Shown: positions 20,981-28,768, counted from the first letter of the stretch. The stretch is DNA of 39,358 nt from an uncultured Bdellovibrionales bacterium (GCA_964650155.1 CAZYRE010000007.1:1-39358), one strand, 5' to 3'. The notes: generated by a model from the letters alone, not told the origin. A program made the numbers and translations.

Positions 20981-21352
20981 TTACTTAGGTCTCTTAGTTC
21001 CATAACGTGAACGGCTCTTCTTACGATCCGTAACGCCATGAGTTTCCAATTTTCCTCTGATTGTGTGGTAACGAACACCAGGAAGGTCCTTAACACGGCC
21101 GCCCTGAATCAACACAACTGAGTGCTCTTGAAGATTGTGACCTTCGCCTGGGATGTAGCTCGTCACTTCCATTCCCGTGGTCAAACGAACACGAGCCACC
21201 TTTCGAAGAGCCGAGTTAGGCTTCTTAGGTGTCTGTGTGAATACGCGAGTACAAACTCCCCGCTTTTGCGGACAGCTCTCGAGCGCTGGGGCCTTGGTCT
21301 TACGAACCTTGACCTTACGTCTCATTCGAACAAGCTGGTTAATGGTTGGCAT
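20981..21352 (-). CDS. rpsL: 30S ribosomal protein S12
   Basis: MPTINQLVR...[17 protein letters not shown]...[13 protein letters not shown] is the S12 signature. AAGGAG SD lies upstream. Confidence 0.98.
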
Positions 21353-21913
21353 AGTGCCTTACTCCTTCCCTTACTTCGGTCGTACTACTGAAACAAATTC
21401 TTCCCTCGACTTATCATCCCAAGAAAGTTTCCTTTCTTAAAATGTGCGCGAAAAATATGCTCACCTAAATTTTATACCTACCTTGGCTGAGAGAAATGGC
21501 CCCGCCGACTTGCGGTTGCTTTCGTGGCTCTTCTCTTTGCAACGCTTACGGAGTCGAGGACCGAGAAACAAATTTTGAATCCAAAATTTATCTTCTGTCG
21601 TCTTACCAACGGAGATGATGCTTCCCCAAGTAGAGCCTTGCATCTCCTCGCAGCTGCGCGCATTTACAATAAAAAACCCCTGCTCGACCCGCATCTCTTT
21701 GTTATAGCTTTCGTAGCGATCGAAAACTTAGTAATGAGTGCGCTCGGTTAGCTAGGTTTATACTTGCCTATATGCGTCCCTTTCGGGAGACGGACAACTA
21801 TCACGCATGAGTAATAAAAGTCAAACAAATGCACGGTTTAAATTTACTTCTACATAATGGATAAAATCAGTGATGCCTTAAGATACAAAAGTCTTATTTT
21901 AATTGACTATTAG

Positions 21914-22480
21914 ATGTTTAACTATCTGATATCGCTAACTATATTTCTCGGTCATAGCCAGGGTGCTTTCGTTCTTTCTTACCTTAGTAAGCAGGCAGAA
22001 GCAGGAGAATCTTTCGCAAAAGACCTCCCTTGGGATCGGGTTAAAAGGGTAATCTCGTTTGATCTGCCGTTTAAGGTTGTTGAAGGGTACGAGGGGCCAC
22101 TAGAGTTACCTGTAGATCTAACATTTTTTATCGCACGTCATGACCCATTTATCTTTCCTCTTTTGAGTGGAATTTTTTATCCTGCCGGAAATGATTACCT
22201 TGGAAATACCGATGCGTATAAAGTAGTACAAAAAGCCGGGGCAAAAGAATTTAGAATTCAAAGAACGATGTCAGATGAGTCTCCGGTTAATCCAACAGTC
22301 CCAGGAAGTGCCGTCGATAATGCTGATAATCAATTTGAACATGATCCTTTTCTAGTCTCTTACTTCTTACCTCTATGCCAATCTAGAGACGAAAACAGGC
22401 TTGCCAGGGAGAGTTTTCTAACTTTAATTCTTGAGACTTTGCCGCTAGGTGTTCCTACTACCTTAGCCCGAGATGAATGA
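21914..22480 (+). CDS. alpha/beta-hydrolase-like fragment (GHSQG nucleophile-elbow motif 13 aa from the start); possibly an N-terminally truncated gene remnant
   Basis: 188-aa ORF and, apart from the Fic ORF at the far end, the only credible plus-strand gene. GHSQG lies at 21950-21964, preceded by a hydrophobic strand (LISLTIFL). Later segments TFFIARHDPF and FEHDPF could supply the Asp and His of a triad. A TAG lies immediately upstream (21911-21913). There is no SD, and there is no room for the N-terminal strands or oxyanion region of a complete fold. Confidence 0.4.
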   Translation: MFNYLISLTIFLGHSQGAFVLSYLSKQAEAGESFAKDLPWDRVKRVISFDLPFKVVEGYEGPLELPVDLTFFIARHDPFIFPLLSGIFYPAGNDYLGNTDAYKVVQKAGAKEFRIQRTMSDESPVNPTVPGSAVDNADNQFEHDPFLVSYFLPLCQSRDENRLARESFLTLILETLPLGVPTTLARDE

Positions 22481-22486
22481 TGGTGA

Positions 22487-23338
22487 TTATAAATTAAACT
22501 TTGATAAATCTAAGGGGCTGGCAACTTTCGCCTCAAACCAAGTTAGTAAAAGACGATTAAATACAAACTCACAAGCTTTAACTTCCAACAACGGCATTTG
22601 AACTCGCTTCGAATTTATAACCTCATTAATTGAAGTAAATCTTCCCTCTAAATCAAATTCAGCGACAAAGTTCCGATCAGTTCCATAGGTAGGATCAACG
22701 GAAGTATACCTCATCGTAAATCCAGAATTATGCTCTGTAAAGCTAATCCATTTAAGATCAGGATCCTGAGAGTTGTACTCTTGCGATGCTCCTGTCCTGA
22801 TATAACCCAAAAGGGACTTACGTTCATTATCGCCTAGAATAGGTGCAAGTAACTGCTTACTATTAGCCGATACTAACCCTTCTCCATTTTTCTCCTCTCT
22901 GATAACGGAGAGACTGGTTAATGTCGCAGTCGTCACAATCTCACCTAATATATCTTGGCCGCGTTTTATAGTGGCAGGGTTATCAGTTTTATATCTAAGT
23001 CTGTTTTCATCGACAATTGGATCAAATTGAAAATGGCCGGTTAAAATTCCGTGCTTAAAATGCAGATGAAGAGTGCCGTCTCTTTCCCGTGTCAACTGAA
23101 AAGTCTCGCCTCGATTTTGATACTGGTTACTCTGAAAAGTAAAAACGCGGATTGCAAAATCATCCCCTGGCATTAATCTAGAGAAAGCATCTTGGATCTG
23201 TAATCCAACTTTTTCATCTTTATTTTGTTCGATTGGTCTTTCCATATTCGTCAGTGACGTTATGGGATTTTTTGAGGGTCTTGTATCACTTAGATTCTGA
23301 GAGTCTATTTTTTGCCCTTCGGCTAAAAACATCAACAA
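22487..23338 (-). CDS. hypothetical protein (up to 283 aa), no recognisable family
   Basis: Complete ORF in the same orientation as the flanking core genes. The start is ambiguous: TTG 23338, ATG 23332, or ATG 23245 (MERPIEQ...). None has an SD. It overlaps the upstream ORF by 53 nt if the longest form is used. I saw no signal peptide or catalytic motif. Confidence 0.5.
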   Translation of the reverse strand: MLMFLAEGQKIDSQNLSDTRPSKNPITSLTNMERPIEQNKDEKVGLQIQDAFSRLMPGDDFAIRVFTFQSNQYQNRGETFQLTRERDGTLHLHFKHGILTGHFQFDPIVDENRLRYKTDNPATIKRGQDILGEIVTTATLTSLSVIREEKNGEGLVSANSKQLLAPILGDNERKSLLGYIRTGASQEYNSQDPDLKWISFTEHNSGFTMRYTSVDPTYGTDRNFVAEFDLEGRFTSINEVINSKRVQMPLLEVKACEFVFNRLLLTWFEAKVASPLDLSKFNL

Positions 23339-24542
23339 TTATAGGGTTTTTGCCGCGACTTGCTTGAACAATTAGCCACTGCTCAAAAGAGGCAACTACA
23401 TGGCCTTTTCTATAGCGAGGAGAGAGAAATGCTGAGACTTTACCGATATCAATTTGCTCAGCTAACTGTAGGACATTAATAAATGGCTCAACAAAGGTGC
23501 GAATGGTTTTTACGCCCTTTGGTTCTTTGATTAGTGCGGGAGCATCCAGTGCCTCCTTAACAAAATGTGTTAAGGCTTTTCCGTGAATCATTTTGGTCCG
23601 ACCACGTATGATTAATGAGCCCATGAACTTATGAGTACGTTTGAAAATTTCAAAACTTCCTACATGGCCTCTAGCTTCACGAGCCAAAGAAAACGCCACT
23701 TCCTCACGAACCCAAGAGTACAGATTCCTACCAAAAGCATGGTAAAGACCCACTACTCGGTGTTGCTGATTGATATAAATATAAAATCCCATCCGAGTAA
23801 TACACTTGATCCGATCTCCATCTTTAGCAAAACGGAGCGGCCGAAGAGGTTCTTCTTCTGGCTTAATAAGTTTTGCTTTCCGGATGATAGTGATAAGGGC
23901 AAGGGCTGCATCACTTAAGCTCTGATTAATATTTGGGAATCGTCCCATTACTTTCTTTGAGTTTGGAGCAAGTCTTGTGAATGTGCGAACAAATTCAATT
24001 GGCAGGATTACATCCTTATCCCCAACGGATACGCCAAGTTCGATGCCACCTTTCCCAGGAATAGAATGAACATCATTATTTCCAGTAAAAAGAGGATCTG
24101 AAGGATGAATAGTATCACTTGCCGGAGAGGGTGAGCCCAGGTAATAAGCCTTCCGATATCTCATCGGATCTTTAATTGGACAATCAACAAAGATTCCAGT
24201 TAAACATTTTTTTCCTTCTGCCAGGTAAAACCTTGGTGGCGTATCAGAACCAAAAAGTCGTTTAAATAATTTATCTTCTTTAATATCCTGAACACCACGA
24301 CCTACTAGCCATTCTTTATAAAGATCTACTGCGCGTTGAGTGTGAGAAAGTTCAACAAATAATCCATTTGGGGTGATTCGAAAGGCCTGATTAAATTCAA
24401 CAACAGGAACTTTTTTTGCTACCTCTTCAATGTAGGGAAGAAAATGAGGCGGTTCCGCTGGGACTACTTCTTTAGGAGACGAACCCTCTATCGGAGGTGT
24501 CGAGGGTTGTGTCGTTTCTGAAGAAGGCTGAGTGTCATCCAT
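23286..24542 (-). CDS. hypothetical protein (418 aa) with Pro/Ser/Thr-rich N-terminus, no recognisable family
   Basis: Long complete ORF starting 38 nt downstream of the rpoC terminator hairpin. The N-terminal 30 aa are low complexity (DDTQPSSETTQPSTPPIEGSSP). No SD precedes the ATG. I recognise no motif. Confidence 0.6.
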   Translation of the reverse strand: MDDTQPSSETTQPSTPPIEGSSPKEVVPAEPPHFLPYIEEVAKKVPVVEFNQAFRITPNGLFVELSHTQRAVDLYKEWLVGRGVQDIKEDKLFKRLFGSDTPPRFYLAEGKKCLTGIFVDCPIKDPMRYRKAYYLGSPSPASDTIHPSDPLFTGNNDVHSIPGKGGIELGVSVGDKDVILPIEFVRTFTRLAPNSKKVMGRFPNINQSLSDAALALITIIRKAKLIKPEEEPLRPLRFAKDGDRIKCITRMGFYIYINQQHRVVGLYHAFGRNLYSWVREEVAFSLAREARGHVGSFEIFKRTHKFMGSLIIRGRTKMIHGKALTHFVKEALDAPALIKEPKGVKTIRTFVEPFINVLQLAEQIDIGKVSAFLSPRYRKGHVVASFEQWLIVQASRGKNPIIVDVFSRRAKNRLSESK

Positions 24543-24570
24543 ACGGGATGCACAGTATCAAGAAGAGCCC

Positions 24571-24610
24571 ATAAATTCAAAGGGCGGTGAGAGTTACCCC
24601 TCACCGCCCT
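24571..24610 (-). terminator. intrinsic terminator-like hairpin downstream of rpoC
   Basis: On the minus strand, AGGGCGGTGAG-(8 nt loop)-CTCACCGCCCT forms an 11-bp GC-rich stem (24581-24610), followed by TTGAATTTAT. It lies 33 nt after the rpoC stop. Confidence 0.6.
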
Positions 24611-24643
24611 TAATAAAAATTCGGGGCAAACCCAGAATTTCTC

Positions 24644-27600
24644 TTAAATCAAGCCAGCCAAAGATTCTAGTGAAGACTGGCCAATTCGGAACTTACTGTC
24701 ATCGGCAACTGGCTCCTCACCTTCAGCTTTGATACGACGATTGTTGTATTCGTCCATACCAGAACCTGCAGGGATGAGTCGGCCCATGATTACGTTCTCT
24801 TTCAAACCACGGAGGTGGTCGACCTTGCCGCTAATGGAGGCTTCAGTCAGCACCTTTGTAGTTTCTTGGAAGCTAGCTGCCGAGATGAAAGAATCCGTTG
24901 TTAAGGATGCCTTAGTTATACCAAGTAGAAGCGGCTCGTACTGAGCTGGCTTTCCTTTCTTGGCCACAACATCTTGGTTTGCCCTATGGACACGATTTCT
25001 CTCTACGTGATCTCCAACTAATAGATCGGAATCACCAGAATCAGAAACTCTGACTCTCTTTAGCATCTGCCGAACGATAACTTCCATGTGCTTATCGTTG
25101 ATACGCACACCTTGGAGTCGGTAAATTTCCTGAATTTCGTTCACTAAGAACGCAGCCAACTTGTAGACACCTTCAATTCTTAAGATGTCATGTGGGTTGC
25201 TTGCACCATCTGTAAGAGCTTCACCAGCCTTCACAACGTCGCCAGCAGCCACAGCAATATGCTTATTCTTTGGAACGAGATACTCAACTGGCTCACCAAC
25301 TTCAGGAGTTACAAGTACTCTACGTTTACCGCGGAAGTCCTCACCGAAGCTAACGACACCATCAACCTCAGCTACAATGCTTGGATCTTTTGGTTTTCTA
25401 GCTTCAAAAAGTTCAACTACTCGTGGCAGACCACCGGTAATATCCTTAGTCTTGGTAGTAGCTCTTTCACGTTTAGCAATCGTATCACCAGCATCGATAT
25501 CAGCGTTATGCTCAACTGATACGCGTACGCCAACAGGCAGATTGTAAACACGTGTCTCACCGTTCTCACCGTGAACAACTACGCGAGGACGAAGATCGGT
25601 GCTCTTGTCCTTAGAAGGAACAATTTCGTTCTCAACGAAACCTGTTCTCTCGTCGGTACGCTCTTCGATCGTCAATTCATTAATATCCTGCCACTCAATG
25701 CGGCCAGCGATATCTGAAAGAATTGGAATCGTAAACGGATCCCATTCAGAGATCATTGCACCGGCTTCAACGTCTTGGCCTTCCTTGACCTTAACTCTTG
25801 CGCCGTAAACTATCGGATGACGTTCACGCTCACGTTGATCGTTTGGATCGATAATTACAACTTCGGCCTTACGGCTCATTGCAACCTGGGTTCCATCACG
25901 ACGAGCTACTAGTTTGCAGTTTTCAAACTTCACACGACCTGGGAAACGAGCTTCCAATGAGGTCTGTTCAGCTCTACCAGATACCGCACCACCGATGTGG
26001 AAGGTTCTCATGGTTAACTGAGTTCCTGGTTCACCGATTGACTGAGCAGCGATAACACCGACAGCTTCACCGATATTGACCAAGTGTCCACGTGCTAAGT
26101 CACGACCGTAACAGAGGCAGCAAACGCCGCGCTCACTGTCACAAGTTAGAGCGGATCTAATAATTACTCTATCTAATCCTGACTCAGTAATAACTGCGCA
26201 CTTCTCTTCATTGATCTCTTCGTTACGACGAACGAGGATCTCGTTGGTGATAGGATCATGGATATCCTCAAGAGCAACGCGTCCAAGGATACGGTTTGCC
26301 AATGATTCAATCTCTTCACCACCCTCTGTAAGTGCGGTTACCTCTAAGCCCTCAGATGTTCCACAATCTACTTCGGTAACGATTACGTCTTGAGAAACGT
26401 CAACAAGACGTCGAGTCAAGTAACCAGAGTTAGCGGTCTTAAGAGCGGTATCAGCTAGACCCTTACGAGCACCGTGGGTTGATACGAAATACTGAAGAAC
26501 GGTCAATCCTTCACGGAAGTTCGCCTTAATTGGGTTTTCAATGATCGATCCGTCTGGCTTAGCCATAAGACCTCTCATACCAGCTAGCTGTCTCATCTGC
26601 TGAATAGATCCTCGAGCACCGGAATCGGCCATCATGTAAACGGAGTTAAATGATGGGCCTTTCTTCTTCTCATTAGTCTCAGGATTTTTGAACTCATCAG
26701 TAGAGATGTGGTTCATCATGTCTTCAGCGATCTTGTCAGCTACGTCAGACCAGATGTCGATGACCTTATTGTACCGCTCACCGGCAGTAATAAGACCTTC
26801 TTGATACTGAGTCTCGATCTCGCCTGCCTTAGCTTCTGCTTTACGTAGAAGTTCAGGTTTAGAGTTCGGTATAATCATGTCCTTAATGGCGATGGAAGCG
26901 CCAGAAAGCATGGCGAATCTGTATCCAACGTCTTTTAGCCTATCAGCTAAGATAACTGTGGCCTTGTTGCCAGCTTCACGGAAAGCTTCGTCGATCAATT
27001 GACCAACTTCCTTCTTCTTCATGAGCTTATTGTAACGCTCAAATGGCAGAGCCTTCGGCATTGTCTCATACAACAAGATACGGCCAACTGTTGTCTGATG
27101 AACTTTTCCTTCAACACGACACTTGATGCCTGCTTGAAGTGCAACTTCTTGGAGTTCCCAAGCAAGACGAACTTCATCGGCACCACTGAATGTTTTCCCT
27201 TCACCCTTAGCAAACGGACGCTCTCTGGTCATGTAATACAGACCCAAGATTATGTCCTGAGAAGGAACGATAATTGGTTTTCCATGCGCTGGTCCCAAGA
27301 TGTTGTTTGTGGACATCATGAGTACACGAGTCTCGATCTGTGCTTCGACAGAGAGAGGTACGTGAACAGCCATCTGGTCACCGTCGAAGTCAGCGTTGAA
27401 TGCTGTACATACAAGCGGATGTAATTGAATAGCTTTACCTTCAATTAGAAGTGGCTCAAAAGCCTGGAATCCTAATCTATGAAGGGTTGGAGCTCTGTTC
27501 AAGAGAACTGGATGCTCTTTAATAACCTCATCCAAGATATCCCAAACGATTGGTTTACCCTTTTCTACCATCTTCTTGGCGCTCTTGATGGTGGTAACGT

Positions 27601-28768
27601 AACCACGCTCTTCAAGTTTGTTGTAGATAAATGGCTTGAATAATTCGAGAGCCATCTTCTTTGGAAGACCGCACTGATGGAGCCTTAACTCAGGACCAAC
27701 GACGATAACGGAACGACCAGAGTAGTCGACACGTTTTCCAAGGAGGTTCTGACGGAAACGTCCACTCTTTCCTTTGAGCATGTCGGAGAGAGATTTGAGA
27801 GGTCTCTTGTTCGGACCAGTTATGGTTCGACCACGACGACCGTTATCAAACAAGGCATCAACTGCCTCCTGCAACATTCTCTTTTCATTTCTTATAATGA
27901 TATCAGGAGAATTAAGCTCAATAAGTCTCTTTAATCGGTTGTTACGGTTAATAACACGACGATAGAGATCGTTAAGATCGCTAGTTGCAAAACGTCCACC
28001 ATCAAGTGGAACAAGTGGTCTTAGATCTGGAGGAATAACTGGAACTACAGTCAAAATCATCCATTCAGGACGATTGTTAGATGCCAAGAAAGATTTAAGA
28101 ACTTTAAGTCTCTTTATTAATTTCTTTCTCTTTGCATCAGAGGAAGTTTCCTTCAAGTCTGCAGCCAATTCGTCATGTAACTTCTGGCAATCAATACCAG
28201 TAAGCATGTTACGAACTGTTTCAGCGCCCATACCAGCATCGAAACGAGATCCAAAAGTATCTCTGGCTGTACGGTACTCTTTCTCAGTCAACAATTGACC
28301 GACTTCAAGCTCGCTCTCGCCAGCATTAGTTACAATGTAGCTTTCGAAATAGAGAACTTTTTCGAGATCTCTTAGGGATATATCAAGGATTGTTCCGATA
28401 CGGCTTGGTAAGCTCTTTAGATACCAAATGTGCGCTACTGGGCAAGCAAGCTCAATGTGCCCCATTCTCTCACGGCGAACTTTGGATTGAATAACCTCAA
28501 CGCCGCATTTTTCGCAGACTACTCCGCGATGTCTCATGCGTTTGTACTTTCCGCAGTTGCACTCATAGTCTTTGGTCGGTCCAAAGATCTTTGCGCAAAA
28601 GAGACCGTCACGCTCAGTTTTGAAAGTCCTATAGTTAATAGTCTCAGGTTTGGTTACTTCACCATGAGACCAACTCCGAATCTTCTCTGGGCTCGCAACA
28701 GATACTTTGAGCGCATTGAATTTGACCGGATTTTTGGGCTTCTCAAATAAGCTAAACAGGTCATCCAT
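24644..28768 (-). CDS. rpoC: DNA-directed RNA polymerase subunit beta'
   Basis: 1374 aa. Contains the zinc-finger [23 protein letters not shown], the catalytic NADFDGDQM, and trigger-loop and bridge-helix segments. Confidence 0.98.

Follow-up and report, generated by a model that had tools for sequence, protein, structure and literature searches.

The rpoC-rpsL gap of an uncultured Bdellovibrionales bacterium is probably an old and repeatedly remodelled region between two core operons

In the contig of an uncultured Bdellovibrionales bacterium analyzed here (CAZYRE010000007.1:1-39358; the window, a stretch of 39,358 nt whose numbering is used throughout), rpoC and rpsL are separated by a gap of 3.3 kb at positions 21353-24643. 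According to our open reading frame (ORF) map, this gap holds two ORFs oriented like the surrounding genes (ORF418 and ORF283, the latter corrected below to ORF252), a convergent hydrolase-like ORF (ORF188) and 561 nt without any convincing ORF (Table 1). The map reproduces the coordinates, the three ORFs and the roughly 560 nt without ORF given in an earlier description of this DNA (the original prediction), as well as the 6 nt between the convergent stops of ORF283 and ORF188. It also confirms the unidirectional gene array reported there: minus-strand co-orientation spans about 36.98 to 0.58 kb, and ORF188 is the sole real plus-strand ORF within it. The original prediction took the gap for a non-core insertion splitting the rpoC-rpsL junction and its three ORFs for a possible functional module. 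Our analysis argues for another reading: the gap is probably an old, lineage-typical and repeatedly remodelled inter-operon region, and neither a recent insertion nor a three-gene module.

Codon log-likelihoods indicate a host-like, in-frame codon bias for ORF418, ORF283/252 and ORF188, and no coding signal in the 561-nt stretch. As originally noted, hallmarks of mobile elements are absent: the ORF list of 21353-24643 and family scans of every ORF in it revealed no integrase, transposase or recombinase gene, the window has no tRNA, and the only repeats, 14-20 nt long and at chance level, do not bracket the gap. Plasmid and phage searches gave no match to the gap genes. The description of the three ORFs as lineage-specific and unannotated was likewise borne out, with no match in Pfam, NCBIfam, PHROGs or PADLOC. 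A PADLOC match to CARF_PDDEXK (E 0.004, 14 bits) lies on a disordered N-terminus and was dismissed as noise.

Table 1. Features of the rpoC-rpsL gap and its borders, and segments of the window compared with the close relative L019
Feature	Position	Strand	Remarks
rpoC	24644-28768	-	ORF map
GC-rich 14-bp hairpin after the rpoC stop	24580-24611	-	Weak U-tract UUUGAAUUUAU behind
ORF418	23286-24542	-	418 aa; ORF map
ORF283, as first called	22487-23338	-	283 aa, TTG start; 53-nt overlap with ORF418; ORF map
ORF252	22487-23245	-	252 aa, ATG at 23245; corrected start of ORF283
ORF188	21914-22480	+	188 aa, GHSQG nucleophile elbow; ORF map
Divergent cassette	21847-23307		ORF252 and hydrolase remnant, ~1.46 kb; history unlike flanks
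Stretch without convincing ORF	21353-21913		561 nt; ORF map
AT-rich stretch	21825-21913		89 nt; no counterpart in relatives; read as scar left when the hydrolase 5' part and its upstream region were deleted
Sigma-70-like promoter	21797-21824	-	TTGACT - 16 nt - (TG)ATAGT; promoter scan and conservation
rpsL leader core	21465-21795	-	~330 nt, apparently structured; alignment and folding
Leader hairpins	21777-21790, 21706-21728, 21611-21649, 21570-21589, 21490-21536	-	Predicted
GGGGUUUUUU run in leader	21668-21680	-	
Variable 3' part of leader	21353-21464	-	Poorly conserved; ends in strong Shine-Dalgarno AAGGGAAGGAG at 21361-21372
rpsL	20981-21352	-	ORF map
rpoC 3' end and ORF418	24900-23308		94.9% identity to L019
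ORF252	23307-22366		No blastn match in L019
Part of hydrolase	22365-21945		72.7% identity to L019
rpsL promoter and leader	21846-21465		90% identity to L019
rpsL	21354-20981		99.5% identity to L019

The junction was compared with that of relatives, a series of loci designated L001-L020, all on metagenome contigs; scans of metagenome and genome contigs returned few loci, mostly duplicates. One of them, L019, is a very close relative found via the exact S12 protein of the window. Identity of rpoC to the window ranges over 81-100% across the compared loci and over 81-93% without L019. Both rpoC and rpsL, with an ORF418 homologue between them, are seen in L001, L003, L007, L009 and L019, and the gap is occupied, with the ORF418 homologue always inside, in every recovered relative showing both genes. 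Its length in relatives is 4.2-13.4 kb, the 3.3 kb of the window being the shortest. The proposed insertion into the junction is contradicted by these loci, in all of which the junction is filled and holds a gene of the ORF418 family. Absence from the same site in relatives, as would be expected of an island, was not observed, since the ORF418 homologue is present and only the inner ORF252/hydrolase cassette differs. The original prediction would have failed if the same genes lay at this junction throughout the lineage under a housekeeping annotation; our data agree with this for the presence of ORF418, and no housekeeping annotation was found.

Gene order around the ORF418 homologue varies. 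L001, L003 and L020 show rpoC, valS, the ORF418 homologue, a convergent gene of 434/436 aa and rpsL. The homologue follows rpoC after 9 nt in L006 and L008 and after 64 nt in L013, where an ORF252-like frame comes next. It lies on the opposite strand in L007, amid other genes between rpoC and rpsL. The gap of L009, whose source is a metagenome-assembled genome labelled 'uncultured Bdellovibrionales bacterium', measures 13.4 kb and contains Fic, ATP-grasp, asparaginase and DsrE-like genes besides the ORF418 homologue.

Some of these neighbours deserve mention in their own right. The valS gene (937 aa; 7163-9976 in L001, 7170-9983 in L003, 773-3586 in L020) stops 14-24 nt before the start of the ORF418 homologue; this essential tRNA synthetase gene has moved into or out of the junction in one sub-clade. 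At 7318-19128 of L009, the Fic gene stands directly after rpoC, and a GARS-like ATP-grasp, a glutathione-synthetase-like ATP-grasp, a further ATP-grasp, an asparaginase_2 and a DsrE-like gene also surround the ORF418 homologue. In L005/L015 (3479-5708), the homologue after rpoC encodes 459 aa, with a 28-residue insertion, and is followed by recA and lexA on the other strand, with no rpsL; the rpoBC and str operons are separated in that genome.

ORF418 is 96.4% identical to its L019 homologue (dN 0.022, dS 0.17 and dN/dS 0.125 for nonsynonymous and synonymous divergence by NG86), and its dS compares with 0.02-0.14 in the flanks. Because of this dN/dS and of a divergence matching that of its flanks, ORF418 is considered a functional gene under purifying selection, one that evolves in step with them. 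These values bear directly on the reading of the whole 3.3 kb as a recent foreign islet splitting a formerly tight rpoC-rpsL junction. A slightly lower GC content (0.39-0.42 in the gap vs 0.44-0.50 in the flanking core genes) and unannotated genes would suit such an origin, and the inner 1.5 kb does carry a foreign or divergent history, as described below. However, ORF418 is syntenic at the junction down to 81% rpoC identity and its dS is in step with that of the flanks; integrase, transposase, tRNA and flanking repeat are absent, as are plasmid and phage matches; codon usage is host-like, and 472 nt of the gap consist of the conserved rpsL promoter and leader. We regard a recent islet as very improbable and this reading as largely refuted.

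The close homologues of ORF418 share 35-56% identity with it. A profile search of 1.84 billion representatives gathered a family of 157 clusters at 50% identity (E<=1e-3), nearly all of about 400 aa, and a profile search of a word-indexed protein database yielded one further member. No match was obtained in Pfam and NCBIfam scans of 76 family members, and the named ones are all called 'hypothetical protein'. D149, in an LHPxDP motif, is invariant in the family; E281, G60, F62, Y106, G110, G116, G166, P235 and W389 are near-invariant. An AlphaFold 2 (AF2) model based on a 76-sequence alignment reached a predicted local distance difference test (pLDDT) of 92.6 and a predicted template modelling score (pTM) of 0.86; an earlier AF2 model from 8 sequences had a pLDDT of 70 and its Foldseek run was uninformative. 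ORF418 is predicted to be cytoplasmic; its first 30 or so residues form a disordered tail and the remainder is globular. Through an internal duplication, the protein contains two copies of a module of some 90 aa with alpha-alpha-beta-beta-beta topology: when sub-blocks of the family alignment were compared by hhalign, residues 182-270 and 321-410 proved homologous (probability 98.3%, E 1.7e-14). Residues 33-181, which make up the N-terminal half, have no significant similarity to this repeat.

Foldseek comparison of the model with PDB and BFVD gave nothing at E<=1e-3, and PDB sequence profile searches with ORF418 and with the repeat module returned noise only, mostly designed helical proteins. 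The remote-homology and structure searches suggested with the original prediction thus delivered a family and a confident model, and no PDB or BFVD match. The weak top Foldseek matches, not significant at E 0.3-1.6, were repeatedly proteins of about 90-110 aa with the RelE/ParE/YafQ/HigB/CdiA-CT fold; for this BECR fold the best E was 0.3, with a probability of 0.4-0.72 and a target-normalised template modelling (TM) score of 0.45-0.54 over 90-130 columns. As a guess of low confidence, ORF418 might be a housekeeping RNA- or ribosome-associated protein built of duplicated RelE-like alpha/beta modules. Another proposal would make it a dedicated transcription or translation factor tied to RNA polymerase or the ribosome and co-expressed with rpoBC. 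The position of the gene close behind rpoC (9 nt in L006/L008, 64 nt in L013) or valS (14-24 nt in L001, L003 and L020) is in line with this, as is a weak partial resemblance to a ribosome/EF-Tu-dependent RNase fold (RelE, YafQ, HigB, CdiA-CT), but the gene is on the opposite strand in L007, the Foldseek E-values are not significant, and members at <=35% identity lie away from rpoC/rpsL, in unrelated neighbourhoods with no recurring neighbour or partner. We consider this role doubtful.

The blastn comparison of the window with L019 divides the gap into segments of very different identity (Table 1), and the inner cassette of ORF252 and hydrolase remnant stands out from its flanks. At four-fold sites of identical residues, the third base is the same in 0.86-0.99 of cases in six flanking genes, including rpoC, ORF418, rpsG, fusA and tuf. 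Within the cassette this value is 0.28 for ORF252 and 0.35 for the hydrolase, which is the random level, and dS (NG86, window vs L019) is saturated. Because fast protein evolution cannot saturate synonymous sites, we attribute a separate history to the cassette. A homologous replacement by a distant allele is the most likely explanation according to these comparisons, with an ancient polymorphism as the alternative.

In both the window and L019, ORF252 and the hydrolase gene stand 3' to 3' with 5-6 nt between their stops, and a like arrangement is found in L001 and L003; no terminator was detected between the two convergent stops. Pairwise alignment showed that the window is without about 1.0 kb present in L019, namely the 5' part of the hydrolase and its upstream region. 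L001 and L003 have the full hydrolase gene and about 180-260 nt ahead of the rpsL promoter.

The L019 gene at the position of ORF283 encodes 248 aa and aligns from ORF283 residue 32, and the start was therefore moved to the downstream ATG. The gene originally predicted is real, most likely with a length of 252 rather than 283 aa. The two proteins are 39% identical over the full length of ORF252 with only small indels. A six-frame search of the fetched loci revealed a partial ORF after the ORF418 homologue of L013 (39% over 71 aa, E 3e-14), which brings the homologues of ORF252 to two other contigs (L013 and L019), each time directly downstream of an ORF418 homologue. A search of 5.8 billion proteins with ORF283 returned the query itself only, and ORF252 has no match in Pfam, PDB sequences or plasmids. 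Since the frame is intact at 39% identity and shows codon bias, ORF252 is regarded as a maintained protein-coding gene, a genuine accessory gene that is narrow in its distribution and has diverged very strongly. Two candidate origins of ORF283/252 were rejected for want of similarity on either strand: kinship with the 286-aa or 583-aa junction genes of L007, and an inversion of the missing N-terminal part of the hydrolase.

ORF188 was originally presented as a hydrolase-like ORF. Its GHSQG elbow and hydrolase kinship were confirmed, and it proved to be a 5'-truncated remnant rather than a whole gene. Of the convergent 434/436-aa proteins of L001/L003, only residues 267-430 match the window (21944-22456; 55.6% and 50.6% identity by tblastn), and residues 1-266 of the L001 protein (434 aa) have no counterpart in the window on either strand (tblastn). 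The L019 hydrolase, called as 374 aa, really extends upstream to a lipobox (AFGGAC) and is full length; ORF188 is 72% identical to its C-terminus. What remains in ORF188 is the 3'-terminal 40% of a gene that encodes a lipoprotein alpha/beta-hydrolase of about 430 aa; the first ~255 codons are lost. A stop codon lies directly upstream of its Met, and the ORF begins about 13 residues before the elbow. Its Ser (GHSQG), Asp (ARHD) and His (FEHDPF) align to invariant columns of the full-length relatives; signal and lipobox, the strands before the elbow and the oxyanion-hole region are missing from it. A Pfam scan of ORF188 gave no match and a PDB sequence search with the hydrolase gave noise only; the full-length relatives have an Abhydrolase match at the elbow that stays below threshold (16 bits vs a cut-off of 23). 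Because it is 5'-truncated while relatives hold the intact gene, ORF188 is, on this comparison, very probably a pseudogene, a non-functional remnant.

The idea of the trio as a functional module is not supported by its distribution: ORF252 is missing beside the ORF418 homologues of L001, L003, L007 and L009 and beside the hydrolases of L001, L003 and L020, and ORF188 itself is 5'-truncated. A narrower version would have ORF252 and the lipoprotein hydrolase as a coupled, fast-diversifying pair swapped as a unit, for example a secreted or predatory lipase-like effector with a cytoplasmic self-protection protein or chaperone, the effector being inactivated in the window. The common divergent history and breakpoints (window vs L019), the close 3'-to-3' abutment in both genomes, the lipobox and Ser-Asp-His pattern of the hydrolase, and two frames kept intact despite saturated divergence would agree with such a pair. 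However, one recombination event gives any two neighbours the same history equally well; besides the hydrolases found alone, neither a family nor a signal peptide nor a known immunity fold could be detected for ORF252, and the pair is seen in two genomes only. We hold it to be unlikely.

That the three ORFs are decaying or spurious frames is extremely improbable. The truncation of ORF188, the lack of clear Shine-Dalgarno sequences and the missing family annotation speak for it, but ORF418 combines a dN/dS of 0.125 with 157 clusters and a pLDDT of 92.6, the frame of ORF252 has stayed full length at 39% identity with only small indels, and codon bias is found in all three. Decay without conservation, named in the original prediction as an outcome that would overturn it, is ruled out for ORF418 and ORF252; ORF188 is the probable pseudogene.

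Downstream of rpoC, the originally predicted hairpin was confirmed 38 nt before the ORF418 ATG, in a 108-nt spacer with a very stable fold (-42.1 kcal/mol, z = -4.8). L019 has the identical hairpin; L001 and L003 preserve it through compensatory changes and have a better U-tract behind it. In the window its tail UUUGAAUUUAU falls below the terminator-scan criterion of at least 5 T in 8. For the rpoBC unit, the hairpin probably acts as an attenuator or a leaky intrinsic terminator. Sequence reading revealed no clear Shine-Dalgarno for ORF418, ORF252 or ORF188 and no obvious promoter for ORF418 or ORF252. As these two ORFs sit directly behind the hairpin, their expression by read-through from rpoC, as originally suggested, is plausible; an onward run into rpsL is not needed. 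The Rfam model Termite-leu matched 24576-24654 (+) with E 2e-4, its 32 bits staying below the gathering score of 51; this is an opposite-strand reading of the rpoC hairpin, most likely a generic hairpin match, and was rejected.

The stretch originally left unassigned holds a conserved promoter and a conserved, apparently structured leader; neither its description as unassigned nor the proposed read-through onward into rpsL is supported. A TTGACw-16/17-(TG)ATAgT pattern is kept 443-803 nt upstream of rpsL in L001, L003, L007, L009 and L019; in the window about 440 nt separate the promoter from the rpsL start codon. Since it has this conserved predicted promoter of its own, rpsL need not depend on rpoC read-through. 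The leader core shares 90% identity with L019 and can also be aligned clearly with L001, L003 and L009. RNAalifold on 4 sequences gave 84 pairs, 14 of them with compensatory changes, as in the hairpins at 21706-21728 (remodelled in L001, L003 and L009) and 21611-21649, and a further prediction gave 15 of 57, these sequences representing effectively three lineages (window/L019, L001/L003 and L009). The consensus energy of -53.4 compares with -27.4 +/- 3.6 in 100 column shuffles (z = -7.2), a control that keeps neither dinucleotides nor phylogeny, and with -44.2 on the reverse strand. Because only about three independent lineages contribute, the conserved structured RNA in the rpsL leader is suggestive, not proven.

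No Rfam family matched the leader strand at E<=1, although which rpsL-leader families the library holds was not checked. Over the whole window (1-39358), which is dense in ribosomal-protein genes, no family reached its gathering score, including the L10, L1, S10 and other leaders; should this lineage have ribosomal-protein leaders, Rfam does not cover them. An S4-Flavobacteria match (E 0.32) was weak and rejected, and a coding leader with a small ORF was discarded because the leader indels are not multiples of 3 and codon statistics are non-coding. We tentatively propose, as possible but somewhat short of probable, that the leader core acts in cis as a regulatory RNA of the str operon (ribosomal-protein-binding or attenuator), new and of unusual length, specific to this Bdellovibrionales-like clade and related to no Rfam family, and that ORF418 beside it is the founder of an unannotated protein family. 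In L019 (5973-6001), about 85-110 nt of the 3' leader are missing, including the strong rpsL Shine-Dalgarno present in the window, L001 and L003; this loss is either a real deletion or a Logan-assembly artefact.

Taken together, the gap would work as follows. The rpoC hairpin would end most rpoBC transcripts and let a fraction pass into ORF418 and ORF252, at low level; in relatives the ORF418 homologue is mostly 9-25 nt behind rpoC or valS, which would couple it to them. The read-through transcripts would run convergent to the hydrolase remnant. The str operon would start at its own promoter and would probably be controlled via its long leader, by attenuation or ribosomal-protein autoregulation. 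The cassette would have been exchanged by homologous recombination, with ORF418 and the rpsL promoter/leader as flanking homology.

Several points weigh against this picture. The cassette boundaries were defined by one close relative only (L019), which does not settle the direction and mechanism of the exchange. ORF188 may retain some function, its frame being intact and its Ser, Asp and His kept, and an assembly error at the truncated hydrolase may also be involved. The linkage of ORF418 to rpoC/rpsL says little about its function, because distant members lie elsewhere. The few lineages behind the leader covariation and the simplicity of its shuffle control count on the same side.

For genome scans, the locus is a caution: an ancestral gap in a core operon array can mimic an insertion, and the signal that really points to foreign DNA here comes from the 1.5-kb cassette apparently swapped within the gap. 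There are three leads, namely an uncharacterised family (157 clusters at 50% identity) whose high-confidence model is unmatched in PDB and BFVD, a candidate new structured leader of the S12/S7/EF-G/EF-Tu operon from a lineage that has been little studied and is probably predatory, and a recombination hot spot of small size separating two operons that are among the cell's most conserved. No major concept is changed, these being ordinary kinds of features in an under-sampled clade. A literature search on Bdellovibrio with rpoC and rpsL found nothing relevant. Elsewhere in the window, positions 36984-39358 (+) contain a stop-free frame of at least 722 codons, open at the window end and divergent from secE, with the Fic-type motif HPLVDGNGRTVR.

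In Bacillus subtilis, a small L7Ae-like gene lies between rpoC and rpsL, and in Escherichia coli the rpoBC and str operons are wholly separate. The junction described here resembles those of other bacteria in being variable and containing lineage-specific genes, in the likely terminator that follows rpoC and in the predicted promoter that str has to itself. It differs from them in its occupant, a gene for a protein of about 410 aa whose family is unannotated, in the spread of gap lengths inside a single clade (3.3-13.4 kb), and in a content that includes valS, Fic, ATP-grasp and hydrolase genes. Cassette exchange by homologous recombination between conserved flanks is also known from mosaic loci such as those for capsule or O-antigen. 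Our cassette shares with them the sharp switch from flanks of about 95-99% identity to a saturated interior, with the same gene order in both alleles. Unlike them, it is tiny (two genes), lies between core information-processing operons and has no known surface-structure role.

The full-length relatives of ORF188 have the GHSQG motif followed by Asp (ARxD) and His (FEHxPF) in the usual order of the Pfam clan AB_hydrolase (Abhydrolase_1/2, Lipase, DUF676). They differ in being sub-threshold in Pfam with no PDB sequence match, and in ORF188 itself the fold is missing its N-terminal half and the lipoprotein signal is absent. With toxins of the BECR fold (RelE/ParE/YafQ/HigB and CdiA-CT), ORF418 shares a weak Foldseek resemblance, in a protein with a duplicated module of about 90 aa. 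This likeness is a lead only, with no significant E-value and no sequence match. ORF418 is four times larger (418 aa vs about 90-110 aa), has no antitoxin-like or conserved small partner next to it across loci, and is conserved, single-copy and under purifying selection.

A precedent for a lineage-specific element at this site exists in Candidatus Pelagibacter ubique, where the 'rpsL motif', a conserved structured RNA that comes after rpoC and before rpsL, at the head of a long series of ribosomal-protein genes, was proposed to regulate the expression of ribosomal proteins (Meyer et al., 2009; PMC2704228). Like it, our candidate leader is an apparently structured RNA between rpoC and rpsL. Its support comes from five or six sequences; compared with the Pelagibacter motif, the element is much longer (a core of about 330 nt, and 443-803 nt from promoter to ATG) and has its own conserved predicted promoter.

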